A DNA stretch of 63,893 bases, counting the filler, from Dugesia japonica (taxonomy: Eukaryota): NCBI GenBank assembly GCA_001938525.1. It is 5 parts of 5 records of this genome, joined end to end, with 100 filler letters (N's around TTAATTAATTAA, not from the genome) between each part and the next. Parts side by side here need not be neighbours in the genome. Positions count along the whole stretch, not along the records: positions 1 to 13,992 come from MQRL01635669.1; 4 more parts are not named here. One strand, given 5' to 3'. Every line of letters starts with the position of its first letter. Within the stretch, counting starts at the first letter, position 1. This document shows positions 1 to 36,471 of the stretch, piece after piece. The notes under the pieces were generated by a model. That model was not told where the DNA came from, made no database searches, and saw nothing but the letters and a program-made list of their open reading frames with translations. A program made the translations under genes and the position numbers.

Positions 1-922
1 TTTAATAATACTGTCATTTGCTGCTCTTAATCTCTCATTTGTCATTTCAATTTTTACATCCATCATATTTTTAATTATTTTACCACCAATAACATTTACT
101 CTAGCTCCTGTATCCAATAAACAATCTATCCACATCTGATTAAATTTTATTTTTAAACTAGGTTTTCCTTACATAATGTTATAAACAAATTATGTTTCTT
201 CCTTCATTTCATCTATTGTCATTATATTTTTTTTTAATTTTTAAATGACCATTCCAGTTATCAAAATTTTCTAAAATCTCATAATTTTCCTCAAATATCT
301 CATCACTATTTCTTNNNNNNNNNNNNNNNNNNNNNNNNNNNNNNNNNNNNNNNNNNNNNNNNNNNNNNNNNNNNNNNNNNNNNNNNNNNNNATTTTCGCT
401 TATTGTCCATACAAACATTTCTACAAGGCTTATTTATTTTATCAATATTTAAGTTATTATTTTTTATCATAAAATTTCCTTTGCCAAAATAATTCATTTT
501 AATTAATATGTTACGGCAAAAATGACTATCATTAAACATTACATCATGATCTAAATCATTACTTTTAGTCACAACATTTCTATTATCAAAATAATTATTT
601 TTAATTAAATCCCTATTATTAAAGTTATTAAAATTTTTATCATTATTTAAATCAATATCCTTAATCATCAAATTTTCATTATCAAAATATATAATTTTAT
701 TTAATTTATTATTAATATTATTGTTATCAAATTTACTTATATAATACGTATTATCAATACACCTATTATAATATGAATAATTTATGTCAACGTAAATCCC
801 ACCTTTTATTACATGGCTCCGATCATCTCTTCGCATAGTCTTTTGGGTAATTTGATCTGAATGTATCTTCTTGATTATCCGAGAAATCTCCATCTACAAC
901 TACTACTCGGCTTTGTCTATTG

Positions 923-1888
923 TTATCCACTGAATTCTTGTACTCTTAAAAATGAATTTCGCGGATACTTACCATAATCTTCATTTCTGTTTCTATTTTC
1001 TCTGTTCGCACAAAAGTTATATGGATTATCATTTTTATTATTTTCTCGTTGAATTCTTGTATTGGATCTATTTCTGAATTGATGTCTTTGAAATTCGGTT
1101 TTGAAATAACACAGTTTTTCCAAATGGCCTGATCGATGACAATTATTGCATTTGACTTTATGACAATTTCTTCGGATATGTCCTTCTTCATTGCAAGCAT
1201 AGCATCTTAAATTTGGTACCATTCTACATTGTCGAGAAAAATGACCTTCAAAACCCGCATGTCCAACATATTATTTTCTTAGGGATTTGATGTTCCCTCA
1301 CTTGAGCGGGTTTCATACTTTTGTTTTGATATTCTCTAAATTTCTTCTCACCTCTGGCCACCTCCGCAAATGTAGCTCGCCTTATTGGTGCATTTTCATC
1401 ATCCATCATAATATTATTCATCTTTTTAATTATTTTTTCAATTTCTGGCATATCTGTTGTTTCTCTCATTTTTATTTCTTTCTGAATTTCTTTGTAATCA
1501 ACGGAATGAATTAAAACAATACTTTGTTAGTTCATTTTTGTCCCATTTGTGTCGCAATAATTTTTCCGACATACGATTTACATCTTCAAAANNNNNNNNN
1601 NNNNNNNNNNNNNNNNNNNNNNNNNNNNNNNNNNNNNNNNNNNNNNNNNNNNNNNNNNNNNNNNNNNNNNNNNNNNNNNNNNNNNNNNNNNNNNNNNNNN
1701 NNAACTGCTTCATAAATTGGAATCAATTCTCTGTTGATCATTGTTTTGATGATTAATCCTCTTGAATTTTCTTCAACATTTGTGATGTCGAAAAATCTCC
1801 GGCAATCTAAAATGAAGGTTTCTAGATCCATTCTTCCACCATATAAATCTGGTACCAGTCTGTTAATTAGAGCCTGTGTGGTCACCAT
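923..1888 (-). pseudogene. gag: gag (frameshifted, partly in N gap)
   Basis: ORF pieces 1586-1888, 1248-1469 and 923-1222 give an N-terminal domain plus zinc knuckles. Confidence 0.8.
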
Positions 1889-1969
1889 GTTAGGTTAAGA
1901 TACAACACCAATCTATTATAAATATTTATTAGATATCAAAATATATTCTGAATCCCTTCTGATTCGCTG

Positions 1970-3434: not shown

Positions 3435-3707
3435 TCAGAGGGTACGGTTATTCCCTAGAACTACGGACTCTCGATCGGCGTAATCCTTGATAATTTCCGC
3501 CATCATCCGATTGTTAGCTTTAAGTATGAGTTCCTTTCGTCGATTCACACTCAATCGTTCTCGTAATACTGCCGATTTCCTTTTAGTGTAACTGATGGTA
3601 TCCTTCAATTCTTTTATTTCTTTCCGCAATTTTTTTGTTTTAGCTCGAAGTTTTTGCTGCTCCACCAATAACTCTTCCGGTTCTGGTCTCGCTATTCTGG
3701 TAGACAT
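3435..3707 (-). CDS. small basic coiled-coil protein near the end of the large retroelement
   Basis: intact 90-aa ATG ORF with heptad pattern (LVEQQKLRAKTKKLRKEIKELKDTI). Confidence 0.5.
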   Translation of the reverse strand: MSTRIARPEPEELLVEQQKLRAKTKKLRKEIKELKDTISYTKRKSAVLRERLSVNRRKELILKANNRMMAEIIKDYADRESVVLGNNRTL

Positions 3708-5714
3708 TCTTTAATTCACAAATAGTTTATTGAAGGCAATTTTAATACAGCTAATTATTTAATTAAAACGCTGAAATATTCATATAACTTTACTCTTTAG
3801 TTAGTGTAAATTCACGTACATAAATTTCATCTTATTTATGTCCGAACTATTTATAAGAAAATTCTTATTCCAATTAATTTACAAGCTATAAAATATATTG
3901 TTGTATATTACACATAAGTAAATGATGTTTCATTGCTATACGGTAGACGCTTCTCCTTCCAATGGATCCAATTGTGCGACTAGAGATGACATCGTTTGTT
4001 CAATGTGACTGCTCAGTCGTTTCCCTGCTTAAACATGCAACAATATTTTCATTTCGTACACCTTGCCGTGTTCGTTTATAGTCGTTGGGGTTTGCATATG
4101 ACTTGAAACTGGATATAATATATATTTGCCACATAACATAGATATTGTTATAAAAGTGAACAAGGAGTTAGAATTCCGCTGTTAAAACTTAGTACCTTAT
4201 TGTTCTCAGGGATTTCTACTTCCTCTTTCATTATGCGTGTTGTCATTATTTGGCTGGATTTTGAGTAGCGGCAATCATTTTAAATGTTTATTTAACGTTT
4301 CTATCAAAACAATTATCATTATCAAGTAAAACACCAAAATATCGTGAACAAAATTTTAAACCGTAAGATGAGAAGCAACTCTTTATTGAAACAAACAAAA
4401 ATTAATTTTAACCCAAAATTTTATATAATCGAAACCAAGTAAATAACTATTCAAAGTATCATCAAGCTAATAATAATGAAATAATAATAATTAAATAAAA
4501 TTATCAACAGATATAAATTGGTTTTTTTAGAAATAAGATTATCAACACTCATAAAATTATATCTTAATCGAACTGAAATAATCCTTCTAAACAAATCTTC
4601 CTATTTCAGAACCCATAATTTATCGTTATATTATCAGTTCATTAAAACAAAATATCTTATGCCTTAGACATTATACTCGAAACCTTATATCCAAAAAATA
4701 AAAATTCCTTTTCGATAGGAAATATTCGATTTAATATTTTTCATTTAGTCTGTTATCATTCCGTGCATCAATGCCATATAATCATTCCAAAACATTAACT
4801 ATTAAATTTGATATAAAATTAAAATCAAAGAACTGCATAGAGAATGTATGAAATCATGTAAGTCTCGTACTAAAATCCATTAATAAAAATAAATATAATT
4901 AATCAATGCCAATTATAATATGATATTAAATAAGATTATCCTTAAAATAACTCCAATAAATTTAATCATACATTGTCTATAATATTAAATCATATAAAAA
5001 AATTATTAATTTAAATAGAATCAATATCAAAATAAAATTATAATAAACTAATGTAAAAATCAAAATGTCAATAAAAATTAAGTAAATTCAACAATTTAAT
5101 TAATATGAAAGCACTACTATTACGTTTACCATAAATTACATATTAAGAATAAAACATTTCTTGCGACCATTGATAAATTAATGCATAGAAAAATCAGAGG
5201 GCTCCTTGATCATCACCAGCAGCGATTTTTATTTAATTTGTGATTTTAATACTTGTTGCGAGTCATCAGATCGTTTAGTAATTCTATCATTTCTCTTTTT
5301 GCTCTAATTGTTGAACTATCGGACATTCAGCTTTTCCATTTTTATCCATCATGACTTTATTATAAAAGTGCTAGTTTCGTCCAAATAATCTCTCTTTAAT
5401 AATTCTGCGTTTCTTTCGATTCCAGTACTCTTGTATTCTCTCTCAACGTGCATTAACAGCTTTATATTTCTCGTAAATTTGAACTGATTCATCTTCTTTT
5501 TATCATTTTGAATTTTTTATGTCACCCTGATGACCTTTGTTGTTATAAATAAATAATATTATCAATATAAATATTTAGATATTATTACCAATATTATCTT
5601 ATTCCATAAAACAACTATAAATATGATATATTTTGTATATTAATACTCCTAAAATTCAACTTTGTCATAATCAATAATAATAAATATACATAATACCCGA
5701 TAACAATGAATATA

Positions 5715-5773: not shown

Positions 5774-6443
5774 NNNNNNNNNNNNNNNNNNNNNNNNNNN
5801 NNNNNNNNNNNNNNNNNNNNNNNNNNNNNNNNNNNNNNNNNNNNNNNNNNNNNNNNNNNNNNNNNNNNNNNNNNNNNNNNNNNNNNNNNNNNNNNNNNNN
5901 NNNNNNNNNNNNNNNNNNNNNNNNNNNNNNNNNNNNNNNNNNNNNNNNNNNNNNNNAAATAAATTAGAATATTTCAACTAAATTATTTGTACTTTTGTTT
6001 TAATTAGATTATATTTCTTTGATAATAATAGAAATTCGTTGCCTATTTTTTTACTATAATAATTCTTTGATAATATTACCAAACACTCTTAATATATTAT
6101 AAATAATAAATAAAAATAATATTCTTATATCTTTCTAATATATATTACTTTCATTCGTATTTTCATCATTTTAATATATTAATACTTATTATATTATTTA
6201 TTATATTTATTTATTTACTTATATTATTCATATATTATAAATAAATTATATATTTCTTTTTCCGCTCATTAATTGTCCATTTATTATTTCAATCTTTTGT
6301 TCTGTTAGATCAATTTCGTTTCCATTTCGTTTCCAATTTATTATTTTATTAGTTTTATTTCTATTATTTAACCATGACATTATTTCTGGTTTCTCTCCAA
6401 TCTTTTTCTTATTCCTTTCGATAAATAATTTCTTACTTTTAAC

Positions 6444-7865
6444 TCAGTTATTATTTATGGGTCTTTCTGAATCAAAATGATTAAGTTGGATTGGTTCGCC
6501 GGGACGGCTCCTTGGCGGCAACATAACTGGAATGGGTGTACTTTTGAGTTTCTCGTATCTACTCTTCCATTTTCCCTACTCATTAGTCAGCTTGACATTT
6601 TCAATAATTAGGTTCTCATTTTCTTCTTTGATTTCTTGTTTCTCCTGGTTTAATCGTTTGTTTTCCTGAATCAGGTATTTGTTGCTGTTCTCCAAGTTTT
6701 GGTTTGTGATCATTGTTTCCTCTTGACTTAACGTTTTTGGATGAATTTCTGATTCTTCATTTCGGTTTATCTAGGTTTTATGCTGAATTACCGCGTTAAA
6801 TTCTCCTTTGTTAGTTGTACTGGCATTTGTACTGCTGCTAATATTTCTCGTTGTTATTGTTTTGAATTTCATAGCTTCTCGACCTCGTGTCGTTTTTGGT
6901 TTACTTGTCGACCTCATCATCGTTGTTGGTTTTTACTCTTGTTGTGATTTCCGGAGTACTTAATATTCTCTTTGTTGACTTCTTAATTCCTTTTGTGGTT
7001 TTATCTGGTGTTAGCTCCCATACTATTATACAATCTTCTTCAAATCATATCCCATACCTCAAGTGTATTTTGCGTTTTAATTCTCGTTGGTTGTCGTCCC
7101 ATTTATATTCTAATAATAAATCACCGTTTGTCCAATCTTTAAGGGATAAATAATGTCCAATTCTAATATTATGTTTCCTTCTCGTAGCACTGATAGGTCC
7201 ACAAACTTTCCTGCCTAATTTATCTGGATTCCGAGCGCACTTCTTCTGTTGTAAGATATATCGCCTCGTTTTGCTTCAAACTTCCGCCCTCGTTGTGTCC
7301 AGAGTACATCATAGACACTTTCTGGTAAGAATCTCCATATGTGTGACATATACGATACTTGCTTCTTGGCAAAATATTTCTCATTTCTACCCCATTTTAG
7401 TTTTTTGCAATCTCGTATTGAGTATAAAATATGGAATAATTTTTTGTAATATATACTGAATATGTTTCTCACTTCAAACATTCCCGAATCTTTGTGTTAA
7501 CTTGACATTCATGTCTCCTCTCGATATAGATGTCCATGTATTCCTTTGTATTGAATTAATCGCATTTATTGTGGATTTTCTCCTGTTATCTCGAGATTCA
7601 GTTGCCAAGATTCTTTGAATATTTTCACTGTCATTGCATAGCCTTTGACTTGTATACCGGATTGTACGCACGTAAACCGAGCTCCAAATTTGGTTTCTGT
7701 ATAATGACCTCCTTATGTCATAACTCGTCTCAATCCCTTTATTTTTATTGTCTGAATTTTGACCTCAAATTTCGTTATGTATACTCGACGTTCTGTTTGT
7801 ACATCTTTTTAACAATACCATTCCTCTCCATTTACTGTGCGTATCATTATCACAATTATTAACAT
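6444..7865 (-). pseudogene. degenerate secreted/env-like protein with Thr/Ser-rich region
   Basis: MLIIVIMIRTVNGEEWYC leader; frame continues through isolated TAA stops; later TITTRNISSSTNASTT with N-x-S sequons; end approximate. Confidence 0.45.
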
Positions 7866-7918
7866 GTATATTCATGGATTTCATGGAATCAGCATTTGAC
7901 TTACTCTTTTGGAGGTTT

Positions 7919-8155
7919 TCATTTCGATTTCTTTTCGCATATCATCTTTTCTCTTTTTGAACCAACCGTAACCAAAATTTTTGAAACTGTTATCGATGCT
8001 ATTATTGCTGCTGACAGGATCATTGTCCAATATCTCTTCTCTTCAGTTTTGATTCGATTTATTATTGTTGTTGGATCGGTTATTCGAGTTCTTTCACCTC
8101 GGATTACTTTCATTATTACTACTGTCAATAATAGGTATAACCATTCATTCATCAT
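7919..8155 (-). CDS. small membrane protein (signal peptide plus TM helix, basic tail)
   Basis: MMNEWLYLLLTVVIMKVIRG leader; WTMILSAAIIASITVSKILVTVG hydrophobic segment; KREK tail. Confidence 0.5.
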   Translation of the reverse strand: MMNEWLYLLLTVVIMKVIRGERTRITDPTTIINRIKTEEKRYWTMILSAAIIASITVSKILVTVGSKREKMICEKKSK

Positions 8156-8243
8156 CTTGAACGTTTATTTTTACTCCACTTATCGATATCATAGTCTCAT
8201 TAAGTTCATATAATTTCGTTTCCTGAATTCCAATCCTTGTGGG

Positions 8244-8480
8244 CTATACCGTTGCTACTATTGCTTTTATACACATTGTTAATATTATTACTGGTATTGA
8301 TGCGATACATGTCCACGCAATTTTCTCCCATTGTCTTCCAAGTGACGGCTTTTTAACCAATATTACTGCCTTCTTTTCGTTCTCGTAAATTGGCTCGATT
8401 ATATCCGTTGTTATTTTTTTGGAAATCTCCTCATCATTTATCACTAGTATTTCTGGTAACAGAATATTTTGTCGTATCAT
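8244..8480 (-). CDS. small protein with C-terminal hydrophobic segment
   Basis: 78 aa, intact; C-terminal IAWTCIASIPVIILTMCIKAIVATV. Confidence 0.5.
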   Translation of the reverse strand: MIRQNILLPEILVINDEEISKKITTDIIEPIYENEKKAVILVKKPSLGRQWEKIAWTCIASIPVIILTMCIKAIVATV

Positions 8481-8686
8481 TTCCTCTTCTTCCGTTTCCT
8501 CGAGTTCTTCGCACTATTTTTCAATTTCTTTTTGTTTCCAAACTTTATACCTTTCTTCATTTTGCCGATTCTGTTGTAAATCCTGGTAGATTCCCTACCA
8601 CGGTAGCGACAGTCCTTCGGGATCCTCTTCGCAAATCTTGATAATGTATCTTTCCTCTTCCGTATCGTAATCGGTTTCTGTGTCAC
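8477..8686 (-). CDS. highly basic small ORF (K/R-rich), retroelement accessory; true start uncertain
   Basis: 69 aa, ends KNSRKRKKRK; stop overlaps the next ATG (ATGA). Confidence 0.4.
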   Translation of the reverse strand: MTQKPITIRKRKDTLSRFAKRIPKDCRYRGRESTRIYNRIGKMKKGIKFGNKKKLKNSAKNSRKRKKRK

Positions 8687-9007
8687 TCCATGTCATCTCA
8701 AATCAGTTTGATCCGTCGTTCCAGGTTTTAATCAAATCTGCTCTATCCATTTGAAAGGTTTCAAGCCATTCTGGTTATTAACAAAACGTTAATAGACGTT
8801 TCTCCTTAACGCTATCACAATCGTCATCCTCCGATTTTATTTCTACGCCTATATCACATCGCTTCTGCGCTTGTTGCTTTTTATTTTTATTTATTGGCCT
8901 TTTTCTCTTTCGTCTTTTGCCCTTTGCTACTGTCTTGAGTCATGGATACCTTCTTTATGATCGCTATCCTCTTTATTTTGTTCAGTTTCTAATTTCTTAA
9001 TTAACTC

Positions 9008-9235
9008 TTAACACTCCATTTTTATTGTTTGTAGAAAAAGTAGTGATCCATCTAGATTTTCAACTTCTGTGAACGTCTCGAATTGTCTCCACATTGCCAT
9101 GATTTTCTGTCCGTCTTCCTTTGACGTGTTCAGCTTCTTAACTTTTGTATCTGTATCTTCTATGAAATTCATCAGATCATATCCTGCGAACATGTTCTGC
9201 TTCATCTCTTGCTTCTGGTTTGTTTTATTTTCCAT
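9008..9235 (-). CDS. retroelement accessory ORF, unknown function
   Basis: 75-aa ATG ORF within the same-strand cassette. Confidence 0.4.
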   Translation of the reverse strand: MENKTNQKQEMKQNMFAGYDLMNFIEDTDTKVKKLNTSKEDGQKIMAMWRQFETFTEVENLDGSLLFLQTIKMEC

Positions 9236-9451
9236 CTTTGGTTGAATACAGTCTTTTTCAATGCTGTTTTTTGTCTTTTTAGTGCGTCGAATACTTCTTT
9301 GCTTCGTATCTTCTCCTCAGCTGCGGTTTCTTTGTTTCATAATCTTTTTTCATTGTTTTTCATATACTCATTCATAATTAATGACAGCAGATCACCCCTC
9401 CTTTTGAAAAAGCGACGTCGAGGCTACCACTTGATACGATAAAAGTTGCTC

Positions 9452-10950
9452 CTACATTTTCCGTTGTACCATTATTTTATGTAGTTCATTAACTGTTTTC
9501 TCCAATTGATGTCTCATTATCTCTGCACATGCTAAACATAACCTCTGAAAGACTGTCTTTAGTATTGGTAATTCGATTACATCATTCTTTGCTTTACATC
9601 TGAGACATCCTTGATTGTCTTGCGCCGTATGGTTTCTCAACCAGCTTCTCTTTCGTGTTATTATAATTAAGAAGTCTTTAACCTCGATCTCTGTCTTCTG
9701 GAAACATTTATTACATAAATTCTCTAAGTCTTCCGCCACAATCGAACATTTAGTTGGTTTCTTCGATACACATCGATTACACTTCTTGGCTTTTGGTTGC
9801 TCTTGATTTACATCTATAATATCCCATATTTTCTCTTCAGCTTCTCATAATTGTAGACCCATTAAATTATACACTTTAAACATACGTACTTTAATTTATC
9901 TTCAGTAATTATTATTTTGGTTTCCATTTGATCCTTGTTACAATATTTGCATCTAACTTCGCCTTGAGTTTGGTTATTTGCTAGTTCTCGTCTCCTTTGT
10001 TTCACTTTTATCCATGATGCCTGAATTTCTTTTTGTAAGTCGATTTGTCAACTTTCACATAACGTTTTTGTAGTTAACATGTCAATTGGGCATTTCGTAG
10101 GTCTGGAACTTTTACAATTTCCTTCCAGGTTCCACGCAATTGTGCTGCCTTATTTTGATCCATCTCAACCCGATTTGGTTTATTAAATATCCATCTTTCT
10201 TGTTGTTTCATGGTAATTCTCTGTGAAATTTGTAAGCATAGTTTACACAATGATTTCCAGTTATCTGCCGCTCCGTGTCCTTTTATTCCATATTGTTCAC
10301 ATCTTGGATTATCGCATTGTCGATCCTCTTGAATTATTCCTTTTTCCACTGAATGATAATATTTATTAAGTATATCTCGTCTGTTTTCAATCATATTTAA
10401 ATTTTTATTTAGTTGATATTTTCTCAAGATCTCCTTAGCGGTTAGTTCAATATTTATTCTTATTGGTTTAGCTGTTGATAAGCCTGCTAAATGATTGTAT
10501 ATACATCTAACCTCACTTCTCATTATTCGTCTCGCATTTGTCATACAATTATTACATCATTGTTTGTATTTCTTTTTCGACACGTTTAATTTTAATACTA
10601 CTTCCATACATTGTATACAGGCTGCTCTTTCGATATCAGTTTTCTCTCTCTACACTTGTAATTACATTCGATTAATCTCTCTGTCTACACGTACGATTTA
10701 TCTTGTGTTACTCGTAAGCATTGTTAACACATTTGTAACAATTGACTTTTGATCAAAGGTACTGTTTCCGGGCTCGTTACTTTACATATTTTACACTGAT
10801 TACTTTCTTCGCTCGATTCCTTTCTTGTGATTTCTGTTATTGGTTTTGCTGTTATCATTATCACACGATGTCTTGATCTGATAGGATATCTCTCTTCTTT
10901 ATCCGTATTGTCCAATTTAAATCGAACTCGTTTTATTTTATTCATTTCTG
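9452..10950 (-). pseudogene. CxxC-repeat (putative multi zinc-finger) extension downstream of integrase
   Basis: CKIC, CYKC, CIQC, CNNC, CKLC, CKYC, CLKC, CNRC, CNKC, CLRC and CLAC read across frameshifted pieces. Confidence 0.6.
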
Positions 10951-12512
10951 GTTCCGCTTCCACTATGTTTTCCTTGTCTATCTCTATCTCTTTGGCTGCT
11001 AATTTACATCTAGACACATGTACGATACTTGGTTTTTTAATGGCTTTCCTAATTCTTTTAATTTCAAATTTGTCGCCGTTCTTTCTAGCACTACAAAAGG
11101 TCCTTTATTTGGTCTCTTTAATTTATCACTTTTTCCAATATCGATTGTATGTGTGTTTACCAACACTAGATCTCATTTCTTAAATGCATGGGCTTCCGTT
11201 TTACGATCATATAATTCTTTGTAACTCTTCTAACTAAATCTTGTACGTGCTTCTGCCAAGTTCCACATCTCTCGCATTCGCTCCTTCATGCCGGTTACAT
11301 AATCATCTTTATTCATGTACTTTGAAATTGGTGGTTGATATTCTAAATCGATAGGCATATTGCATTCTCGTCCATACATTAAACTGAATAATGCTGCTCT
11401 TGTAGTTGAATGTACTCCCATCCTATACGCAAATAAACATAAATTTAGATGTTTGTTCCATTCTCTTTGATCTCTTGAGGCGTAACTCAATAGCATTCTT
11501 ATCAAAGTTTGATTGAATCTTTCTAACAATCCGTAGATTTGTGGATAATATGCCGATGTCCGTAATTTGTAAATATTGAAGAAACTCGTAACCTCTTTCA
11601 TCAATTCGCTTATAAAATTCTTTCCTGGGTCCGTTAAGATTTTCTTTGGATTCTGTAGCGCCTAAATACTTTGTCGACAAACACTTTTGCGATTGTCACT
11701 AACTTTTTATCTCCTAACGCAAATGCTTCTGGAAACTTTGATAGATAATCTACCACTGTTAGTATGTATATTTACCACTGTCTGTATATCGCTTTTATAT
11801 CAATTGGTGCTGCTGGCACTAGAATTGGTTGTAATTTAACTTTGAATTCGTTTATTTTTGAATATTGTCTACCCCACTTCTTTAGATGCTGTTTCCTGCC
11901 TTTATTACACTAAACTTTACTCAGATCATAGTGTGTTAGATTATCTAGAATTATCTTAATCTCTTCATCTTCATCTTGATCCTTTTTCAGACCTTTAACA
12001 TTTTTATTCTCAGTATAATATCACACATAATGTATATTAATTACCTCATTATCTTGTATTTTGGTTTCCACTTTTTCTTCTGGTTCGTCTACGAATCTTG
12101 CTCTTGACATGTAATCTGCATTTTGATTTGCTTAAACCGATTTGTATTTCATCTAAGGTGCATATTCTTGTAGTTTCATGGCCCATCTCGCCATTTGATT
12201 TACCTGTAACGGTTTCTGTCCGATCAGTGTAAGTGGTTGATGATCCGTGAAAAGCACTAATTCATGTCCGAGTATCTTCTTCGTCTAACTGGCTTAATAC
12301 TGCTCCCATTGCATATCCACTTGCACCTGTTGCCAATATAAATGGTTTCTTAAAATCAGGTTGCCACAATATCGGCGCGACTATTAATAATTTTCGTATG
12401 ATCTCGAATGTCCTTTGATGTTCATCAGTCCATATAAATTTTACATCCTGACGTACTAAGGATTAAATTGGTTTGACTATCGCCGCAAATTCTTTAATAA
12501 ATTTTCTGTAAT
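10950..12512 (-). pseudogene. pol: pol fragment: RT thumb, RNase H, integrase, GPY/F domain
   Basis: KEFAAIVKP; ATGASGYAMGAVLSQ; TDHQPL; ADYMSR; DYLSKFPEAFAL; LTDPGKNF; YYPQIYGLLERFNQTL; KGPFVV; VHVSRCK; many stops and frameshifts. Confidence 0.9.
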
Positions 12513-13992
12513 TTTCAGTTTCGTGTCTAAGTTGCCTTATCTATTAATAATGGGTCTAATGGGACTCGTTTACGCAGCTCTAAAATATCGTTCACCAATT
12601 TATTTTCTCGGTCATGAGTTTAAATGATTATATAAGCAAATGAATCTAGCTGCGCATTCCAGGCACGCTCTTGTGAGTGTGAAAGTCCGACCTCCTCTCG
12701 GTTTTCCTTACAAAGTTTCTTATACACTCTATTTTTTGACGTTTTAGCTGTTACCTTCGCCTCCAAATTTCGTTTGGGCAGGCGATAGAGGTTCCATGTT
12801 ATCTTATTCTCCTCGCTCTTGACGCAGAGTTTCTTGTTGGATACAGCAGACCTCAAGCGCAAAGAGTTCACTAAATAAAAAATAACGAGAAATTGACGAT
12901 TGTTTGGTCTGATTCTTTCTCAATTATTTATGCTTATTTAAGAGGCGTAAGATTTAAATACTATATTAGGGTTTCTTTTAATGTTTTTTGATTGACTTTG
13001 AGCTTTTCAAATTTAAATTTTCTATCGTTTATTTTTAGTAACCACCTCATTTTTATTTCTTTGTTTTACGTCTTTTTTCTGACCTCTCATTGGTCCAATC
13101 TTTACGACCCTTTTTGGTTTTTCTGAAGGTATAACATTTTTAATTTTATCAAAATTGAATTTCTCTCGTTTTAAATTGTTCAGAATTTTTTATCCCATCG
13201 TTTTTTTATCGTACTGAGCAAAGTTACTTGCTTTTTCTTTTTTTTCGTTAATTGACCTTTAATTTTTTGTACTAATTAAAATTTTTCTTTATTCTTCTTA
13301 ATTCATTTTTGTTAAAATAAAATTATTTTAATTTAATTCTTTAATATGTCTTAATAATAATTGACTATATTCTTTCTTCTTTTTATTAGTTTTATTATTT
13401 TTTTCATTCGTTCTTAATTATTTCTACTTTATTAATTTTTAATTATTTCTAATTTCATTATTTGTAAAATAGCTTTTCTGAGTCAACTTTAACTGAATTT
13501 GTTGATTAATGGGCCCTCTGTTTGGGGTCCTTTCTTTATTATCTCTTCTTTCTAGGTGTTCCACCCCAACAAAATGAAAAGCAAACAAATTATCCACATT
13601 AATAAAAAATTCCTTATTTTTATAGTTTCTTATAATAAAGACACTTTTGTGACATTAAAAGAACTCGTATAATTTACTAAGATATACTCATAGTTATTGA
13701 AATTCGAAATAACTTTTTTTGAATAATACTAATTAACGTTATATTTTATATTTAATAAATATTTTAACCACTTAGTTGTTATTGAAATATGATAAAGGAC
13801 AACGATATTGTAACTCTCATAATTAACTTATCAAGAGCAACACCATACAAAATTTCATGAAATTCAATCAAGTTAAAGTTGTAATCGTAATCGATTATTT
13901 TACAAAAGTTTAATGTAAATATTATTTTATAATATAATTAATTGTTCCGTATTATTTATTAGTGTTACTAAACAATTAATTACGTAATTTAC

Positions 13993-14329: not shown

Positions 14330-15930
14330 ATACTAGTAGAAAGTGACGACGATATCGAACATGAAGGAGATGTATTAGCTCCAGAATCTGACCATGACTA
14401 ACAATGTGAAGCAAACATATCTGAAATCATTATTGATGAAACAGAAGAATCTCAAGATAGTGAAGACGATATACCTCTTAGTAAACTACGTTTAAAATTA
14501 AACAAAAACAAGCAGTTCTCTACGCGAAAACTGGAAAATTTACTTATGTCAGAAGAAAAAATAATATTGAGATCTCACAGCTGAATTGAAAGAATTAGAT
14601 TCTCCTTACAGTTTGTTCAGATTCTTTCTGACAGAAAAAATTGTGAGTAAAATTGTCTCCGAGTCTATTTTGTACTTAACACCAAAAAGTCTCTAAAGAA
14701 GAATATCTAGCCACAGATGAACAAAGAATCCCTACAAAAACTCGTTCTACAATCAAACAATACAATCCAAAAAACTCTCATAAATGTGAATACAAATCAA
14801 TTGTCCTTAGTGGTGTAAGCGTATTTTCACATGATTATGAAATTTTTGAAGGAGGTCAGAGTAATAAAATATCTGGTATTTTTTCTGACTTAGGCATGAG
14901 CTCCAATGTAGTACTTCGAGTGACAGAGTCAAATTGGCCAAGACATTCCAATTATAAGTTATTTTTTGATAATTGGTTCAATAGTGTTCATTACAAATTT
15001 ATCTAACAAAGCAGGGTTTAGTTACCTCTTGAAATCATTAGAATAAATAGGATGAGGAATTTTAATATGTCCAAGGAATCGGAAATGAAAAAGAATGGAA
15101 TTTTCTAGCTATGCTAGAAAAAGTGTTCACCATTGATGATATCAAAATATCTGTAATATCTTGGTATGATAATAAAGTAGTGAACATGATGTCTACATTT
15201 GTTGGAAATACTCCAATAGTTTCTCAAAAAAGATTAAATCTATGTAATGTTTCCATTTATAAATGCGGTAAGGGTTTATAATAAATATACTTGAGGTGTA
15301 GACCTTCTCAATTCCATGCTAGGATATCACCTAATATTTCGATCAAGATTAGACCAAAAATGTGGTTTATTCGTATATTTTTTCATTTCTTGAATTTGAT
15401 GGTGGTGAATGCCTGGATTTTATACAGAAAAAATGGCAGCACTTTGGTGAATTAGAGTTGGCCGAATTTAAAATGGTCATTGCTGAATGTTTATGCAAGG
15501 TGAATAAAGCTCCCGTGATTCTTTCAAAAATAAGAGGTCGACCAACACTTGATCATATTTCAGTGAATGTATCCAGAAGAGACCATCATCTGACTTTCCA
15601 ATGGAGAAAGTTCAAACAGACGGTTATCATCATCTGCCCATATGGTACAAAGAAAAGCAAAGGTGCAAATATCTTTGTGATGGTAAAAGTTTCATTAAAT
15701 GTTCAAAGTGTGGTGTCTTTTTATGTATGAACAAAGACCGAAAAGGTTTCATACCGTATAAATCTTAAGGAATAAAATGCATATTGTGCCATATATGGCA
15801 CAGGTTATAAAGATCAACGTTTTTCAAAGAAAATCAATAAATACTTTATAAACCTTGTTTATGTTCTTATTATAACTAATTTTATTCTAAAATTTTTTTC
15901 TTGAAGAAAAAAAAATTATACAGTAAGGAT
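14330..15930 (+). mobile_element. piggyBac-like transposon, degenerate transposase and right end
   Basis: FDNWFNS, WYDNKVVNMMST, YNKY..GVDLL, Cys-rich C-terminus; subterminal palindrome TGTGCCATATATGGCACA (15785-15802); ends before TTAA 15931-15934. Confidence 0.85.
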
Positions 15931-25723: not shown

Positions 25724-27659
25724 CAGTGTCTGTCAAACTTTTTCTTCGCGCGGCACACTTTTTTTAAAAAATTTTCCCGGCACAGTATAATAAAATATCA
25801 TTTTTGTTAGTTTTTACTCTGAAAAGTCAAACCCAAAAAACTTCCTAATTAAAACGGTTTTTTTAATAATTTTTATAATATTTATAGCTTCATAGATATC
25901 ACACAAATTTATTTAATAAAATATAAATCTAATGAGAATGGTGGGCCTGTTTTTCTTTGCAAATTGTTTCTTTACGAGGCTGAATACTTGAGTAGCAAAC
26001 TCGTATTTCTTCATCAAGTTTTCGTAACCGTTCACGCTTTTTTGATTTTATTTCTGTAAGCACAGAAAATCCTAATTCGCATTGATATGATGGACCAAAT
26101 GAAAGCAATTTTTTTATAGCATTGTTGCTTAATACAAGATACTGATCATAAAGCGAAATCCAAAATGCAGACAATTCCAGCTCTTCAAACGATCGTTTCA
26201 AAACCAAATCATTTTTCAAATCAATTAATTGCTCTTGCTGAGAGCAAGCCAAAGTAGATCCCTTGAAATCAGTGAAAGGTTTTTTTTACCCATTCAATTT
26301 CTTTTGTATCAAGTATCGGAAAATATTTTTTCAATGAGTCTGATAGATTTTGAATTGTTTTCTTTATTTACGGCAAGATTCTTAATTTTTGAGCTGATCC
26401 ATTGACGCCAGGAAAACTATATAGCTTCATATTTTGAACAGCTATCTTCCAAAACTGCAATCTTTTCTTGAAAGACTTCAATTTCCCCGTAATTGCAATA
26501 ATGTTTTCACTTTTACTTTGAATGCTCGTGTTCAAATGATTCAATTTCTCAAAAATATCGTTAAGAAATGTTATTTTTACCCACCAAATATTATCATGAA
26601 GAAAATTTAAATCCGTTGTGTACGTTTCAAAAAATGAAATAATTTCAGCTTTCAAGGCAATCAACCGAGAAAATACCTTTCCTTTCGATAACCAACGAAC
26701 TTCAGTGTGGTAAAGCAGACATTTAAAATCCGAATCCATCGAATCGCACAAAGATGAAACAATTCTAGACCGCAATGCACTTGATTTGATGTAATTAACA
26801 ACTTTTATCATATTATCCATCGCTTCTAAAAGCTTTCCAGATAAAGATTTTGAAACAAATACTTCACGATGAATCATGCAATGTACAATTTTTATTTGTG
26901 AATTTTGCGGCAAAAAATGATCGATAAATCCTTTATCTCGGCATTGTATTGATAGAGCGCCATCTGTGCATACACTCACACAATTATTGACCAAAATGAA
27001 AAAATCTTCACCGGTAGTTCTCTCTTTTAATTCACAACAGTAAAAAAAAATTTCGTGATTATCTTGACACCTCTAACAACGTGTAAAATCTATATCAGCT
27101 GGTATTTTTGTTACTTATATCAGTGACTTCATCAACTTGCAATGCTCAAATTTTCTCTAATTCATCGGCTGTATTTGTGAACTTGGTTTTAACTTGAAAT
27201 TCAATATCATTGGGCATGTCTTCAATTTTTCGTTGAATTGTATTACTTGAAAGAGGAATGTTTTTGATTTTATCAATTGCTTCACGACCAATATTCATAT
27301 ATTTCATAGCAATTATCATAGCAGGCATTATAATTCCTTCAGCATCAGAATGTGGTTTTTTCTTTTGAGCTAATAACTGGGCAATAGCTTGTTATTTGTG
27401 ATTTTTTTTTACTTCATTTTTTTAATATATTTTGTTGTTGCAATCTCATTTTCTCAAAATATTCCTTTGGTTTGTCTCTGTATTGCTGATGGTTAGTAGG
27501 GTAAGTGACGCTGGAGTTTGCTAGGAACAATCGATTCGTTCGATAAAGATTTTAAGCATATCATGCAAAACGGTAAAGAACTATTATTATCAGATGAAAT
27601 AAAGCCATATTTTACGTATTCTGCATCGTATTTTCGCTTCAATGTATTTCTAGCTTTGT
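25724..27659 (-). mobile_element. hAT Charlie/Buster-type (SCAND3/ZBED5-like) transposon with disrupted transposase
   Basis: TIR CAGTGTCTGTCAAAC; IPLSSNTIQRKI; VCTDGA; HCMIHRE; HTEVRWLSKG; CELGFS; truncated by contig spacer. Confidence 0.93.
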
Positions 27660-29550: not shown

Positions 29551-29901
29551 GCAAGTCAACAATGGATTTATGTTAACATTGAAAACAGTCGTCAACGTAT
29601 GGCTGACGAAATTGGAGCAATGAACGCAGCAGTTGCTCAAGTTCTTCGATCTGCACAAGGCTTAGCAACTATTGAAGAGAGTGAAGAGGAAGAAATGAAT
29701 GAAGAAATGATAGCTAAAATGCAAAATTCATTCAGTTTAATAACAGTCCATTTACCCAGTTTGATGGAAGAAATAAAAACCGCTGCGTACTATCAAGATC
29801 AATTAATTGATGAAGATGCATCTGGAGAAGACCTAATAGCTGCTGCCAAGCGTTTAGCGGACGCCTTTACTAATTTAATCAAAGCTGCATATCCTCTTGA
29901 A
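29551..29901 (+). CDS. TLN: talin exon (rod R1)
   Basis: ASQQWIYVNIENSRQRMADEIGAMNAAVAQV...SGEDLIAAAKRLADAFTNLIKAAYPLE; AG/GT boundaries. Confidence 0.9.
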
Positions 29902-29954
29902 GTTAGTTCTTTTTTTAGAAAAATCATTTAATAAACATACAAAATTAACATATA

Positions 29955-30077
29955 AAATTAAAGCTTCGATCAAAATTTTTGTTCTTTTTCATTGATATTT
30001 GATAATTCAATTGAATTGTTATCAAATATCAATAAAAAAAAGAAAAATTGTGATCGAAGCTTTTATTTTAAATGAAT
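29955..30077. repeat. fold-back copy of the Penelope-type terminal repeat, ribozyme core deleted
   Basis: inverted arms AAAGCTTCGATCAAAATTTTTG...ATTGATATTTGATAA / TTATCAAATATCAAT...GATCGAAGCTTT. Confidence 0.7.
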
Positions 30078-30941
30078 NNNNNNNNNNNNNNNNNNNNNNN
30101 NNNNNNNNNNNNNNNNNNNNNNNNNNNNNNNNNNNNNNNNNNNNNNNNNNNNNNNNNNNNNNNNNNNNNNNNNNNNNNNNNNNNNNNNNNNNNNNNNNNN
30201 NNTATATTTCATTATAAGTTATTATTTTAGTCAATTTTAGTTTAATTTTACCTAATTATATTATCGTTATATATTATAATTATATTATACGTAATTAATT
30301 ATATTATAATTGTCATTATATCAATCTGAAATAATAATTAAAATTCTTCAAATTTAGCAGCATAGAATTATATTTTTAATAAAATCCAATACATCATTAG
30401 TAACAGTTGTTTCTTCGTAGATTTATAATATATGGTAAATTTAGTTAACAGAAGTATTTTGACATATGTTTTAAACCTAATCAAATAAAATAAAAATATC
30501 AATTAAAACATTCAATATTTATTTTATTTTTTTAATAAATCATAACCACATTATGAATTTTGCTATAGGGTGGATATTAAATAATCAAAAATTTGACAAC
30601 TTAATTAAAAATCATTATCTTTCTGAACAGTAACACCGTTAATCAGAAACACAAGAATCTTTTACAGTGGAAAACATGAACATGGAAAATTTTATTNNNN
30701 NNNNNNNNNNNNNNNNNNNNNNNNNNNNNNNNNNNNNNNNNNNNNNNNNNNNNNNNNNNNNNNNNNNNNNNNNNNNNNNNNNNNNNNNNNNNNNNNNNNN
30801 NNNNNNNNNNNNNNNNNNNNNNNNNNNNNNNNNNNNNNNNNNNNNNNNNNNNNNNNNNNNNNNNNNNNNNNNNNNNNNNNNNNNNNNNNNNNNNNNNNNN
30901 NNNNNNNNNNNNNNNNNNNNNNNNNNNNNNNNAAAATTAAG

Positions 30942-31283
30942 GATCAGAAGCGATCATTAAACAGAAAAGATATATTTGATGCTGCTAATGTGGTTGGTGA
31001 AGCTAGTAGTGATTTATTGCAACAAATCACAGAACAAGAAAACATTCAAATGGAATTGAAGAATGGTCGCCCGTATTCAATTATTATGTTAACAGAAGAA
31101 GAACAGTTGTACCAAGAAGAATTATTACGATTAGCGAAATGTGTAGCTAATGAAACAACAAATCTTATTAAACAAGTCAAAGTTATTGCAGTTGAAGCTG
31201 AAAACCCAAATGAACAAAAGAAAGTAGTTATGGCTGCAACTGAAACTGGATTAGCAATTAGTCAATTAATTGCTACGACAAAA
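30942..31283 (+). CDS. TLN: talin exon (R1-R2); acceptor may be 30948
   Basis: RKDIFDAANVVGEASSDLLQQI...LLRLAKCVANET...AISQLIATTK. Confidence 0.9.
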
Positions 31284-31335
31284 GTATTATGAAAAGTTTT
31301 GTATATTTAATATATAACATGTTTAAAATTAATAG

Positions 31336-31545
31336 ATAGTAGCACCAACAATTGAACAATCAGTTTGTCAAGAACAATTAATATTTTCTATTGAAGACGT
31401 CAGTAAAGCAATTCAAGTAGTTGTTGAAAATTCTAACAAAGCTACTCAATCTGAAGAATTGCAAAGTCTGACTACTTCGGCAGCAAATCAGGTTCAAGAA
31501 GCTTTGGATACTTTAATGAAACATCTTAGAAAAGATTATGACAAG
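31336..31545 (+). CDS. TLN: talin exon (R2)
   Basis: after a 52-nt intron; IVAPTIEQSVCQEQL matches talin VVAPTISSPVCQEQL. Confidence 0.92.
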
Positions 31546-31786
31546 GTAACTAATTATGTTGATAATTTATTATCATGTAATTATTACAATATTTTAAAGT
31601 TGTATCTTAAGTTATTTTACATTTCAAATTGTATACAAATAAGTTTTATAATTTTGAATTGCAAAAAAATTAAATATAACATTTTATATCATTTAAGTTT
31701 TCACTGCATAAAGCTGAAATACAAGTTTTTTAAGTTGATTCTTTTCAAAATATCATTTTTTTTATAATGTTATAATAATTTTAACT

Positions 31787-32690
31787 AGGGTTGCCAATAT
31801 TAACGATTAATCGATCAGAATTTTTAGCGGCTAATTATTATCATGATAATGATGAAATTTCAATTATTTATTTGGTTGGTTAATTATTTACTGACTTTAT
31901 AAAGATATATTAATACACCCATAAGCTTCTCGCTTTAACGGCCAACTTTAACCTTTAAATGCATGATGTACCATATATGCTACATCATGCATATAAGATT
32001 AGTAATATAAAGAGAGACCGTACAGCGAGGTATGGGTGTATTTAGTTTCATCGGAAATTATACATTTTTATTATTTTATACTGTTAAAAATGGCTGAAAA
32101 GAAGATCAGCTATTATAAACACGTTAATGGGAAGTTGCGTAACCATTTTGGTTTTAAAGTAGACGATAATAATGAAGTTATTGATGGTGAGAAGATTTAC
32201 TGTAGTATCTGTGATAAAGTCTTGGACTTTGTTGAATATGTTGCTATCGAAGAGTGTGGGCGGGAAAACTTGAAACTGAAAGCAAATATTATTAAGCCAA
32301 TTTGTATTGAGGCGAGACAATATTACAAACAGTATTGTCCATTGGATTGTTAGTTAAGTATTCTAATCTTCAACAGATAATTTTATTATAATTACGCGTC
32401 GCACTTCAGAATGATGAATAAAATTGCCGACAAACTATTGACAGCATTATTCATAGAACGTTTCAAGAAAAAAGTTTTAAATTGAAAGTGTAGATCAGCA
32501 AAGCCAGTGAAATTTCAATTACTAGTGATTTTTAGTCCTCTCTCTGAAATGAGTCCTTTTGTGGTGTAGCAGTGCAGTAGAGTGACAGCGATTGCTCACT
32601 AAAATCTTTTACATTGGACTGTTGGAGTAACCGAACGTCACTTTGCAGAAAACATTGCTGAAATCTACACAAACCTGTTGGTAGTTATCG
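31787..32690 (+). mobile_element. hAT (ZBED1-like) remnant with BED finger
   Basis: TAGGGTTGCC end; MAEKK...HFGFK...IYCSICDK; later ERHFAENIAE; right boundary approximate. Confidence 0.6.
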
Positions 32691-33794
32691 CGCGTTATTT
32701 TTGAAGTAGTATAGGGTTGTGGGTAGTTGATGGATTTTGGTGGGCAATGGCTTGTTGGAAAGGTGATGTGATGGGGAGTATGATTGTGTAAGAGTGGTAG
32801 TAAATTGAGGAATTTTTAATCGATAATTTGATTCGTAAATTTTTGTAAGTAGCATGATGAGGTTAAAAAAAATTTCCTTCCGGTGTAAAGATAAATTTCC
32901 TTCCTTACCTTATGGGTGTAAAGATAATTAATTATTGTGTTAGGTTAAACCATTGAATCATACAGTGTGTAGATGTGTGGATCAAAAAAAGGAAAAAATA
33001 TCTGTTGAGATGCCTTTGAGATTATTGCAAAATTAATATGATTAAATTAAAAAAAAGTTTTGGCGAAACGTAANNNNNNNNNNNNNNNNNNNTATGACTA
33101 ATTTGTCAAAGTTTAAGTAATCAAATAAGTACTTTAATAAATTGATAATTTAAGACCTTACTATTTGTTTGTTATTTATATTATAAATTTTATAATTTTA
33201 TAATATAACATTGTATACAATTTATATAATTTATTTTAATTTTTTAAAAATATTTTGAAATATTTTTAAAAAATATTAGGAAAAAGGGCACAATAAATAT
33301 AATTGTTGGTTAATGTCAATATATAGATATAGAATATTTTGTAAAATATACAATTATTAAATTAGTTATTATTTTTTTTATCATGCCTAATCAAACTGCA
33401 GAATACAATAGGCATAATTTACTTTTTATTTCGTTTTCATATTTTGAAGTTGTAAAATATATAATAAAGATACTACAGAAATACTAAAGGAAATCTATTT
33501 ATAAAAATATAAAAATTATTAATTACTAATTTTAATCATAAATTACAATTACTATTATTTTCCATAAAATTGTAAGAAAAGATTAATTGCATATCCAAAT
33601 TTTTTAAAATGTCAGTATTGATTTCATTTGAAAATTTAGAATAAGAAAATAATGTCCATTTTAAACTGAAATAACTCAAATAAGACATATACTCTTTATT
33701 AAATAGTTTTAATCATTATTTATAAGATATATAATTGTCTTCATTTAAAATAAAAGCTTCGATCAAAATTTGTTTTTTTNNNNNNNNNNNNNTT

Positions 33795-33829
33795 AATTCT
33801 GTATTTCGACTTAGTCTTCTTCAGGAATT
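33795..33829 (-). ncRNA. minimal hammerhead ribozyme motif, inverted twin
   Basis: exact reverse complement of 33837-33871. Confidence 0.65.
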
Positions 33830-33836
33830 GACTTTC

Positions 33837-33871
33837 AATTCCTGAAGAAGACTAAGTCGAAATACAGAATT
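33837..33871 (+). ncRNA. minimal type I hammerhead ribozyme motif (cleavage site variant CA instead of UH)
   Basis: AATTC-CTGAAGA-A-GAC TAA GTC-GAAA-TACA-GAATT. Confidence 0.7.
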
Positions 33872-33994
33872 AAGCTCAAAATACCATAAAAACAAATTTT
33901 TGATCGAAGCTTTTATTTTAAGTGAATTCAGAAAAACGATCAATTGTTACGCCCAACAATTATTCTCGCAATAATTGCAATTGTAAAATATAAT

Positions 33995-35134
33995 TGTCTG
34001 TATTAATTTTGTGTTTGTATTAATATTTCGAAAAATTCTGTCATTTCAATTGAAGATTTCAAACATGGAATAAAACCAAATGTGTGCCATTTATCTTTAT
34101 GAGTGTAAACTGGGCCACAAAGCTGCAGAAGAAAGTCGAAATGTCAACTGTGCATTCAACCAGGGTTCGATAAATGAGCGCTCGATATAGAGATAATTCT
34201 AAAGTTTTAGAGATGGATTGAGAGCCTGGAAGATGTAGAAGATCGTGCACCTCTAGCTTCCAAGGATAATGAAAAATCGAAAGACTTGGGTAAGGCAGGT
34301 CCCCGAGCTAATATTCGACGCATTACCCAAAAGTTAAATGTCAATCATGTAGCAATTCTGAATCAATTCAAACAATTGGGCAAGGGGAAGAACCTTGATA
34401 AATAGGTACAACATGACTTAAGTGAAAAACAAAAAGTCAGCGTTTTGAAGTATGCTCGTTGCTTTTTCTCTGGAATATCTACAACCCTTCCATCGAGTGG
34501 ATAGTGACATGCGATGAATAGTTGGTATTATATATATGGTATTAACATGACAAAACTCCTCAAAAATTGCCAAAACCCAAACTTCATCCAAATAAGGTTA
34601 TGGTAAGCGTTTGGTGGTATTCGAGAGGCATTATCCAGTATAACTTTTTGTCTCCCAGTGAAACTATTACAGCTGACAGATACTGTAAAAAGATCGAAGA
34701 TATGTATAAAAAGTTACAACATCTTCATCCGCTTTTGCTTAACAGAAAACGTCTATTTGCTCTCCATGATAATGCCCGGCTAGATACTGCACAAATAAGA
34801 CGGTTACATGACTTGGGCTACGAAATTTTTCCTCATCCTCCACAGTTGTCGGATCTCTCCCCTACTAACTAATATATTTTTAAACATCTTGCTATTTTCC
34901 TTGACGAAAAAATCTTTAAAAACCAAGGTTCTGACAAAAATGCTTTCTGTGACTTTATTGAATCCAGTGCAGAGGATTTATATACTACTGGAATGTGAGT
35001 GCTTGTTTCCTGTTGGCAATCATGTGTTGATTGTAATGGTTGCTATTTTATTTAATAAAGTTTAATTATCTTTGAGTTATTTAAGTTTGAAATTTTTAAA
35101 GTCCAAAACGGACATTATTGTCTTACTGGCCTAA
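33995..35134 (+). mobile_element. mariner transposon, disrupted transposase
   Basis: IVTCDE; PKPKLHPNKVMVSVWW; LHDNAR; HPPQLSDLSPTN; right TIR ending GGCCTAA + TA. Confidence 0.92.
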
Positions 35135-35479
35135 TATTTTAAATATTAAAAAAGTTTTAACTGTGAAAATATTTAAAAATTTTAAAATAAATAAGATAAA
35201 ACTTTTAAAATAAATAAGATAAAACTTTCAAAATAAATATTTTAGTAAAAAATTAATAAAGATATTAAAAGTTCTAAATATAAAAAAATTAAGTGAAATA
35301 CAAAGAATAAACTTAAAATTGATAAAATTAATTTTAAAATAACATCGAAATTAATTAGTTTTAAAATGGAATTTTTTAAAAGTTTTTTTATGAAGAAATT
35401 ATGAAAAGAAAAAGTGGAATCTCAAATTTTTGGGCTTATTTCATTTGTTTGAAAAAACCATAAATATTTCATGATTTAA

Positions 35480-36471
35480 AAACTCTTTTTAGTTTAACGG
35501 TAAGTGTTTTAGACTTATTCAAAAAATTGCATTTGGTGACATTTAAAATGGAAGGCAGAAAAGAACATTTTAGGGACATAATGGTTTTTTTTGGAAGAGT
35601 GAAAACGCTTCTCAGACCCATAAAAATAAATGCTTTATGTACGCTGAGAGTGCTATGGATGTTACAGCATATCATAAGTAGTTCAGAAATTTTCACTTGA
35701 TAAATTTTAATCTAATCGATTGTGAGTAGGATATATTTCTAATAATTAAATAATGATTTGACCCGTATGTATGTTGCGATTGATGTGACCGTATGTATGT
35801 TGAGATTGATGTGACCTGTATGGAGATTGGTAATTATATAATATATTTCTCGAATCATTACATCACTTATATTCCNCATATTTAAGAATGCAATTGGTGT
35901 GTAATTGCCACTTTAGTCTATATATAGTCTATATCTAAGGAAGGCAAAGCTATGCATTTAATGTGATTGCCAGGGAATAATTTCTTATGATCATTTGCCT
36001 AAAAACCAAACTATTAATTCGGAAAAGTACCGTTCACAACTAAGCAATTTAAATTAAGCAATATACTAGAAGTGACCTTAACTAGCAAACAGAAAGGATA
36101 TTGTGTTTTAAAGCAATGTTAAACCATACTTGTCTTTGGCCATCCGGCAGAAACTTCTACAACTGGACTGGGATGTTTTAGTCTATCCACCGTACTCACC
36201 AGATCTTGCGCTCTCTAACTATTATTTATTTAGATCGCTTGAAAACAGTTTATGTGATAAGAACTTTTCTTGCTTGGTATATTTGAAGTCACTTGAATCA
36301 GCCCCTCGGTCTGAAACCTTAGAGATTTTATGAGTACGATTATAAGCTACTAGACAGATGGAGAAATATCATCCAATACAGGGCTAATATTGATGAAATG
36401 TAATTTATTTTAAATAAAATTATATTTTAATTTTATTTATAAAAAACGAACGAACTTATGCACAGACCTAA
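35480..36471 (+). mobile_element. second mariner remnant, internally deleted
   Basis: MEGRKEHFR N-terminus at 35548; YPPYSPDLALSNYYLFRSL; right TIR ending GACCTAA + TA. Confidence 0.85.

Follow-up and report, generated by a model that had tools for sequence, protein, structure and literature searches.

Decayed coding DNA, probably including accessory genes, behind a cysteine-rich pol end in a Ty3/gypsy family of Dugesia japonica

The genome of Dugesia japonica carries the remains of a Ty3/gypsy retrotransposon in the DNA described here, a stretch of 63,893 nucleotides from assembly GCA_001938525.1 that joins five parts end to end. We call this whole stretch the window. Its G+C content is about 25%, and ATT runs and gaps are numerous. 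On the minus strand, the remains run from a fragment of pol at 10997-12510, through a cysteine-rich extension, into a region at 6444-9450 where an earlier, sequence-only reading had seen a cassette of genes for membrane and secreted proteins. The strand and position of this cassette, 3' of the integrase, are borne out by our analysis. What kind of DNA is it, and what might it have encoded?

The pol fragment was identified from Pfam and PDB searches and from alignment with P0003, a relative on a 1.3-kb contig. It begins at the junction of reverse transcriptase (RT) and RNase H and continues through RNase H and the integrase core to a GPY/F-like end. Pfam matches RT_RNaseH_2 (E 1.9e-15) and RT_RNaseH; these lie at 12462-12160 and the integrase at about 11900-11000 on the same strand, so that RNase H is upstream of integrase, as in Ty3/gypsy elements (Metaviridae). 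The sole PDB match is Ty3-G Gag-Pol (E 2e-4). The integrase is 51% identical to P0003 over 206 amino acids, in an alignment that extends through the GPY/F end module, and Pfam places a weak match to SH3_Tf2-1 on the same end (E 0.07). A gypsy-type integrase with a GPY/F-like end, a mark of Ty3/gypsy, is thus present. Nine stops in 488 codons and three frame changes interrupt the fragment; this copy is dead. Gag, protease and RT are missing from it, its 5' end is abrupt at about 12510, and the window contains neither paired long terminal repeats (LTRs) nor a long direct repeat. The earlier description of the element as large cannot be demonstrated on a copy cut at about 12510 in a window with no paired LTRs.

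Beyond the integrase lie two features that the first reading had overlooked, a cysteine-pair array at the end of pol and a polypurine tract. Through a frame change near 11040, the integrase continues into an extension (9452-11040, minus strand) with 12 CxxC or Cx4C motifs, or about six pairs, closed by a stop at 9454-9452. We recognized it by a motif scan, by its continuity with the integrase end and by its break load. To compute break load we took the cheapest path over the three frames, with a stop costing 1 and a frame change 2, and compared it with dinucleotide shuffles. The extension costs 2.18 per 100 codons, a value equalled by 0 of 100 shuffles. No homologue was found in Pfam, among 149 candidates for its 160-codon frame, by tblastn on metagenome loci or in the Atlas, where the best score (0.82) was too low for a lead. 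The array is likely a zinc-binding region at the end of pol.

The same measure shows that the cassette is of coding origin. Break cost per 100 codons is 2.34 for RNase H-integrase, 3.02 for 9450-8160 and 2.32 for 7865-6444, and 4.99-6.42 for four control stretches. Shuffles reached the observed cost in 0, 1 and 0 of 100 trials for the three element regions, and in 31, 6, 86 and 39 of 100 for the controls. Because its break load is close to that of pol and about half that of the non-coding controls, the minus strand of 6444-9450 must derive from coding DNA that has decayed about as far as pol has. On the plus strand, too, some costs are low (11 and 12 for the two parts of the cassette), a common finding on the strand that faces coding DNA of such composition. 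Stops number 1.0-2.6 per 100 codons in the presumed frames, against 1.8 in pol; these densities correspond to a change per site of some 6-16%, within wide intervals. A weak model of codon-position composition clearly picks the presumed frame at 8500-8246, 8155-7921, 7865-7500 and 7173-6935.

How many genes are there? Pol has 11 breaks in about 470 codons. At that rate only 16-17% of runs of 75-78 codons would escape a break, and decay alone is expected to leave short open pieces. The earlier count of at least five packed open reading frames (ORFs) was inflated in this way: one of them, a stretch rich in K and R, has no Met, and another is probably the end of a longer gene. Three or four genes, rather than five or more, are likely.

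The first block (8778-9375, minus strand), defined by ORF reading and by differences between copies, is made up of coding pieces for charged peptides, which follow one another in three frames: 9375-9241; a 75-codon ORF found, as reported, at 9235-9008 and extending to about 8932; and the K/R-rich piece at 8939-8778, which had been called an ORF and is 53 codons between stops. It is likely one or two broken genes. Six of eight listed between-copy differences in 9050-9100 fall at third codon positions of the 75-codon frame (P 0.02); the break cost of 9400-9008 by itself does not reach significance, since 17 of 100 shuffles did as well. The second block (8244-8750, minus strand) is likely a single gene of about 170 codons for an acidic protein with a C-terminal membrane helix. 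A Met at 8750 is followed by three stops. The 78-codon ORF at 8480-8244 and its hydrophobic helix (15-residue hydropathy 2.47) are there as reported; as a separate gene the ORF probably does not stand. It is likely the end of the longer one, because 8775-8246 reads in one frame (posterior 1.0) and nearly all other copies differ at the stop near 8705, as they do at another near 7715 (P 0.09 for the two).

The third block is an unbroken 78-codon ORF in a frame of its own (7919-8155, minus strand; posterior 1.0). Its two hydrophobic segments, a predicted leader and a predicted transmembrane (TM) helix, agree with the earlier account. Between them are 22 polar residues, and the 13-residue tail contains six K or R. 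Words resembling a TATA box (8271) and a poly(A) signal (8169) are also present; both kinds turn up often in DNA of such base composition.

The fourth block (6444-7865, minus strand) was delimited by break load, frames and hydropathy. It is a broken gene of about 470 codons with a leader, a globular part of about 300 residues, an S/T-rich linker (28-32% S/T at codons 301-380 and 5-18% elsewhere) and a coiled-coil-like end. The short hydrophobic leader, the S/T-rich stretch and the decay had all been noticed correctly; the single frame assigned to the gene was wrong over 7173 to about 6933. That frame, with 16 internal stops in 471 codons, holds over 7865-7500 (posterior 1.0) and after about 6930. 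Between 7173 and about 6933 it has seven stops in 80 codons, against one in the neighbouring frame. The gene therefore changes frame near 7173 and about 6930, and other copies have indels at both places: one contig (149 of 242 depth) at 7173 and one at 6930-6932. The presumed frames contain 3, 1 and 0 Cys.

Two finer claims about these proteins did not survive. N-glycosylation sequons number three, against 4.0 in shuffles, and one lies in a part outside the coding frame. The similar endings of the two leaders reflect a DNA likeness that 57 of 1922 pairs drawn at random from the region also reach, in a test devised after the fact; small residues ahead of the cleavage site are a general rule of signal peptides. 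A second, nearly open frame over 7863-7500 (one stop, 5.3 expected, P 0.011) was rejected as coding by codon-position composition, and the integrase has a similar side-frame stop gap. Side frames on the minus strand at 7863-7500 and 7496-7175 have fewer stops than codon shuffles (P 0.011 and 0.0004) and may include an overlapping ORF.

Is the long gene an envelope (env) gene? Its place 3' of pol, its leader, its length of about 470 codons and its coiled-coil-like end would suit a highly diverged envelope fusion protein. Yet it has no C-terminal TM anchor: the highest 19-residue hydropathies in the three minus frames of 7865-6250 are 1.2, 0.9 and 0.9. Nor does it have an RxK/RR furin-type site, which decay of about 10% could have erased, and with four Cys it lacks a set of cysteine bridges. 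It has no Pfam or PDB match. Errantiviruses do carry leader-bearing env genes of several hundred codons (F- or gB-type) within gypsy elements; in the flatworm examples of PMC13524379 (in excerpt), however, the env is of gB type and stands between gag and pol. An envelope origin is thus very improbable, and the earlier judgement that the cassette is unlike known env holds.

Searches for relatives returned almost nothing. For the gene at 8750-8244 and the 75- and 78-codon ORFs they covered Pfam, PHROGs (except for 8480-8244 alone) and viral contigs (P0002), with the Atlas added for 8155-7919. The long gene has no relative among 1583 candidates in a set of 5.8 billion proteins, and none in Pfam, PDB, PHROGs or viral contigs. 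Its N-terminal 230 codons matched P0004 (E 5e-4) among 1.84 billion representatives, a candidate we rejected as the translation of a four-fold tandem repeat, matched over 28 residues. The ORF at 8155-7919 has no Pfam, PHROG or Atlas match, and the 8960-8160 frame none in Pfam, PHROGs or viral contigs. Across the cassette, all Pfam and PHROG matches fell below cut-off and reflected coiled coils or composition, and four viral-contig scans gave no relative. None of 54 metagenome loci with distant integrases (25-46% identity) matches 6444-11000 by tblastn at E 1. Two single-sequence folds had a mean pLDDT of 33 and were unusable; both hinted at long beta strands at residues of about 30-130. Foldseek on the first of these low-confidence folds found nothing at E 0.001, an uninformative outcome at that pLDDT. 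Because eukaryotic transposon genes are thin in such collections, and the integrase itself found one relative (P0003) among 50 candidates, the lack of homologues is weak evidence of novelty. The family is not described in the literature searched, nor in the excerpts of PMC8532177 and PMC11410931; it may be recorded in repeat libraries such as Repbase, or in the original paper on Burro and its supplements, all outside that search.

Do other copies of the element carry the same genes? Four sequencing runs were compared with 6430-12540 at 80% likeness; the summed depths they give are not copy numbers. Run X6 matched with 1395 contigs, 1149 of them less than 95% alike, and gave depth in all 30 bins. 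The pol at 12510-11000 belongs to a multi-copy Ty3/gypsy family. The window's own copy appears in X6 as three contigs of depth 8-11 with 0, 1 and 0 differences over 495, 487 and 481 bases; the breaks they cover are therefore genomic and not assembly errors. Mean summed depth in X6 is 4790 on pol, 3392 on the cysteine array, 921 on 8266-9489 and 189 on 6430-8265. The corresponding values in X17 are 349, 215, 103 and 5.

At the bin boundary at 8265, depth drops about 15-fold in X6 (1088 to 72), and in X17 it goes from 92 to 0. Such a step would be expected if the distal part (8265-6444) were an independent and rarer repeat, or else a captured host gene, lying beside the element at only a few places, and the copy has already been rearranged at its 5' end (about 12510). 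Against this, a 19%-diverged contig spans 7873-8312. It bridges 8265 with at least 47 bases on each side and links the tail-anchor gene, the 78-codon gene and the leader region of the long gene in another copy. Further contigs, 15-19% diverged, cover 7303-7739 and 8299-8768. The distal part also shares its strand and break load with pol, and no intron-like or terminal-repeat boundary is seen at 8265. We consider a separate origin unlikely.

The second overlooked feature bears on where in the element the cassette lies. A G-rich polypurine tract at 9395-9405 (minus strand) is followed by TG at 9394-9393. A tract at such a position has the typical look of a 3' polypurine tract; it is probably a plus-strand primer, in which case a 3' LTR would start there, unless the tract is internal. 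Given this tract, the cassette may lie within a 3' LTR of 3 kb or more, for which we put the chances at about even. Stated in full, the proposal is that a very long 3' LTR begins at 9394 and has the cassette as its U3, so that the genes would be LTR-borne and occur twice in a full element. The site is the only one of its kind on either strand of the 64-kb window, it sits 46 bases beyond the stop that ends the pol frame, and summed depth drops near 9490. Burro, a giant planarian element, exceeds 30 kb with internal regions of up to 25 kb, so its LTRs would be several kb long (PMC6431247, in excerpt). On the other side, the pattern was set only after the site had been noticed, and 8.4% of Markov simulations of the 6-kb region yield such a tract somewhere. 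Compared with the general consensus for LTR starts (PMC3601003, in excerpt), the bases after TG disagree at two positions out of seven. The window has no second copy, LTR end or target-site repeat, and depth over the cassette is below that on pol, not above it. In this full form the proposal falls somewhat short of an even chance; it refines the account that follows, and both can hold.

We conclude that 6444-9450 is decayed coding DNA of a multi-copy Ty3/gypsy element, behind a pol that ends in a cysteine array, and, with a little better than even confidence in the whole, that it held three or four accessory genes, none an env, whose products were directed to the membrane or the secretory pathway. 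Could the pieces instead be the remnants of one or two very long frames? Burro unites many domains in one polyprotein (PMC6431247, in excerpt), and the tail of such a polyprotein, once decayed, might leave small ORFs and apparent leaders. Short open pieces are what the pol break rate predicts, and the lack of a Met in the K/R stretch fits as well. The pol frame, however, is closed by five stops in 9454-9319. Moreover, the 78-codon ORF and the long gene each start with Met and a hydrophobic leader, in different frames, and the depth steps coincide with gene ends. We give this polyprotein origin a low probability, about that of a separate distal repeat, and return to a set of accessory genes.

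In such a set, gene 1 (9375-8780) would encode a charged soluble protein, gene 2 (8750-8244) an acidic tail-anchored membrane protein, gene 3 (8155-7919) a 78-residue type I membrane protein with a basic tail, and gene 4 (7865-6444) a secreted protein with an S/T linker and a coiled coil. These proteins would enter the secretory pathway. Because the genes follow the pol stop, we propose that they were made from spliced or internally started RNAs. The 78-residue protein might join membranes in the manner of sORF2/FAST proteins, so that capsids would pass directly from cell to cell, and the secreted protein could act as a surface partner or as a host modulator. This functional step, FAST-like membrane apposition with a role between cells, is argued by analogy and is rather doubtful; host modulation and structural help in particle release are alternatives. 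The boldest version, a Ty3/gypsy lineage that spreads between cells by means of a three- or four-gene, non-env cassette in a 3' LTR of at least 3 kb, with a leader-bearing FAST-like fusogen and an undescribed secreted family, is improbable.

The analogy deserves a closer look. According to the excerpt of bioRxiv 10.1101/2025.03.14.642691, sORF2/FAST-like proteins are proposed to let env-less MDG1-group elements pass between cells, and in 7 of 22 consensus sequences from Lepidoptera such genes follow pol. The screen used there asks for 60-210 residues, an ectodomain of 10-50 residues, an MGxxxS/T motif, a single TM helix with the N-terminus outside, and at least three K or R within 15 residues after it. 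The 78-residue product has the size, the ectodomain (22 polar residues) and the basic patch (six K or R in 13). As in MDG1-group and other insect Metaviridae, the element is an env-less gypsy with a short ORF on the same strand (78 residues here, 63-107 there) that predicts one TM helix, a short ectodomain and a basic patch after it, and some of those ORFs too are downstream of pol (same excerpt). The likeness is one of description only; the ORF differs in its leader-like N-terminal segment, in the absence of the myristoylation motif and in the company of two or three further genes. The 78-residue protein may work like sORF2/FAST; because it has the size and basic patch and lacks the myristoylation motif, we do not count it as a member.

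Several observations weigh against the set of accessory genes as we describe it. The 78-residue ORF has no Met-Gly start and no N-myristoylation motif MGxxxS/T, and with its two hydrophobic segments it would be single-pass only if the first were cleaved. The composition model misses the presumed frame at 9240-9010, 8775-8500, 7500-7175 and 6700-6446, and neither a homologue nor a usable fold was found for the cassette. Because summed depth falls past 8265, the distal genes may be present in a minority of copies, and no listed contig joins pol to the cassette in another copy. Synonymy counts rest on 40 listed places of 906 that differ. By these counts, the presumed frames of the cassette have seven synonymous differences out of 19, and two within stops; the N part of the long gene has none out of six, and pol plus the cysteine array three out of 21. 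With so few synonymous, the listed differences are mostly this copy's own decay and no ratio of nonsynonymous to synonymous change (dN/dS) can be derived. Finally, raw RNA reads are nearly absent: five in X9 (6% of run) and 53 in X10 (25%), all but one less than 95% alike and most matching the stretch only in part. The subgenomic transcripts that the sequence-only reading had proposed to look for were not seen among them. Run X17 was dropped as evidence of expression: that it is RNA is a guess, and its depth follows the same profile as the DNA-like run.

How does the cassette compare with other known systems? Genes that lie in or overlap U3 are familiar from vertebrate retroviruses: mouse mammary tumour virus (MMTV) sag, human immunodeficiency virus (HIV) nef and foamy virus bel, one or two genes in each. 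The cassette, with its several genes, would share their LTR-borne position only if 9394 is the LTR start. A parallel in gene content is offered by the non-env ORF3s of bdelloid rotifer LTR elements: extra genes 3' of pol, some for small TM or coiled-coil proteins, with no detectable homology to env, expressed from spliced or internally started RNAs (PMC5408684, in excerpt). Those occur one per family, and several belong to enzyme families (GDSL, DEDDy; same excerpt), whereas here there are likely three or four unassignable genes behind a cysteine-pair extension of pol. The giant planarian gypsy element Burro/GYPSM1 likewise inhabits an AT-rich animal genome and has numerous extra domains and accessory ORFs; its BIR, ankyrin, BCL2 and MATH domains and an env-like region lie upstream of protease in a giant polyprotein (PMC6431247, in excerpt). 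None of the extra domains of Burro is matched in the cassette. Neither the Burro arrangement nor the gag-env-pol order of those flatworm errantiviruses agrees with the one seen here, though our copy lacks the 5' part, where Burro carries its extra domains.

Extra genes after pol are known in gypsy elements, usually one per family. If our account is correct, several orphan membrane or secreted genes behind a zinc-finger-like pol tail would broaden the ways in which retrotransposons without env might travel between cells or affect the host, and would add protein families that current libraries lack. Should the genes be LTR-borne, each solo LTR would scatter them across the genome. The value of the locus is limited in that the copy is dead and offers no functional handle.

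The rest of the window holds further mobile and host sequences. Two related, coiled-coil-like ORFs, at 12548-12919 and 60419-60700 (both minus strand), share 48% identity over 82 amino acids (E 1e-25); the first adjoins the cut end of the pol fragment. A TGTTGGGGT start and an A-rich run precede each of them by 0.7-1.4 kb, and the pair may represent a second family whose LTR carries a gene. Exact TGTTGGGGT words occur at 3039, 13571, 59034 and 62086 on the minus strand and at 56546 on the plus strand. They fit the general LTR start consensus and probably belong to other families, as 5' or solo LTR ends. An unbroken ORF of 91 codons (3435-3710, minus strand), immediately upstream of the LTR-like word at 3039, encodes a basic coiled coil with compositional Pfam matches only. 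At 1-1894 (minus strand), a gypsy-like gag with zinc knuckles (Pfam E 2.4e-7) and a weak protease (E 0.0016) run off the left end of the window.

On the plus strand, 29551-38387 contains exons of host talin (Talin_middle, E 2.2e-12, and other talin domains). Decayed transposases are found at 14680-15768 (plus strand; DDE_Tnp_1_7, piggyBac-like, E 4.8e-7) and 34546-34872 (plus strand; Transposase_1, mariner-like, E 3.7e-19). Two stretches, 25929-27072 and 57519-57920, look hAT-like by eye and have no Pfam match at E 0.01. Short palindromic repeats occupy 33740-33926 (187 bases) and 29949-30074 (126 bases); related ends occur at other places in the window, and the repeats are likely miniature inverted-repeat elements.

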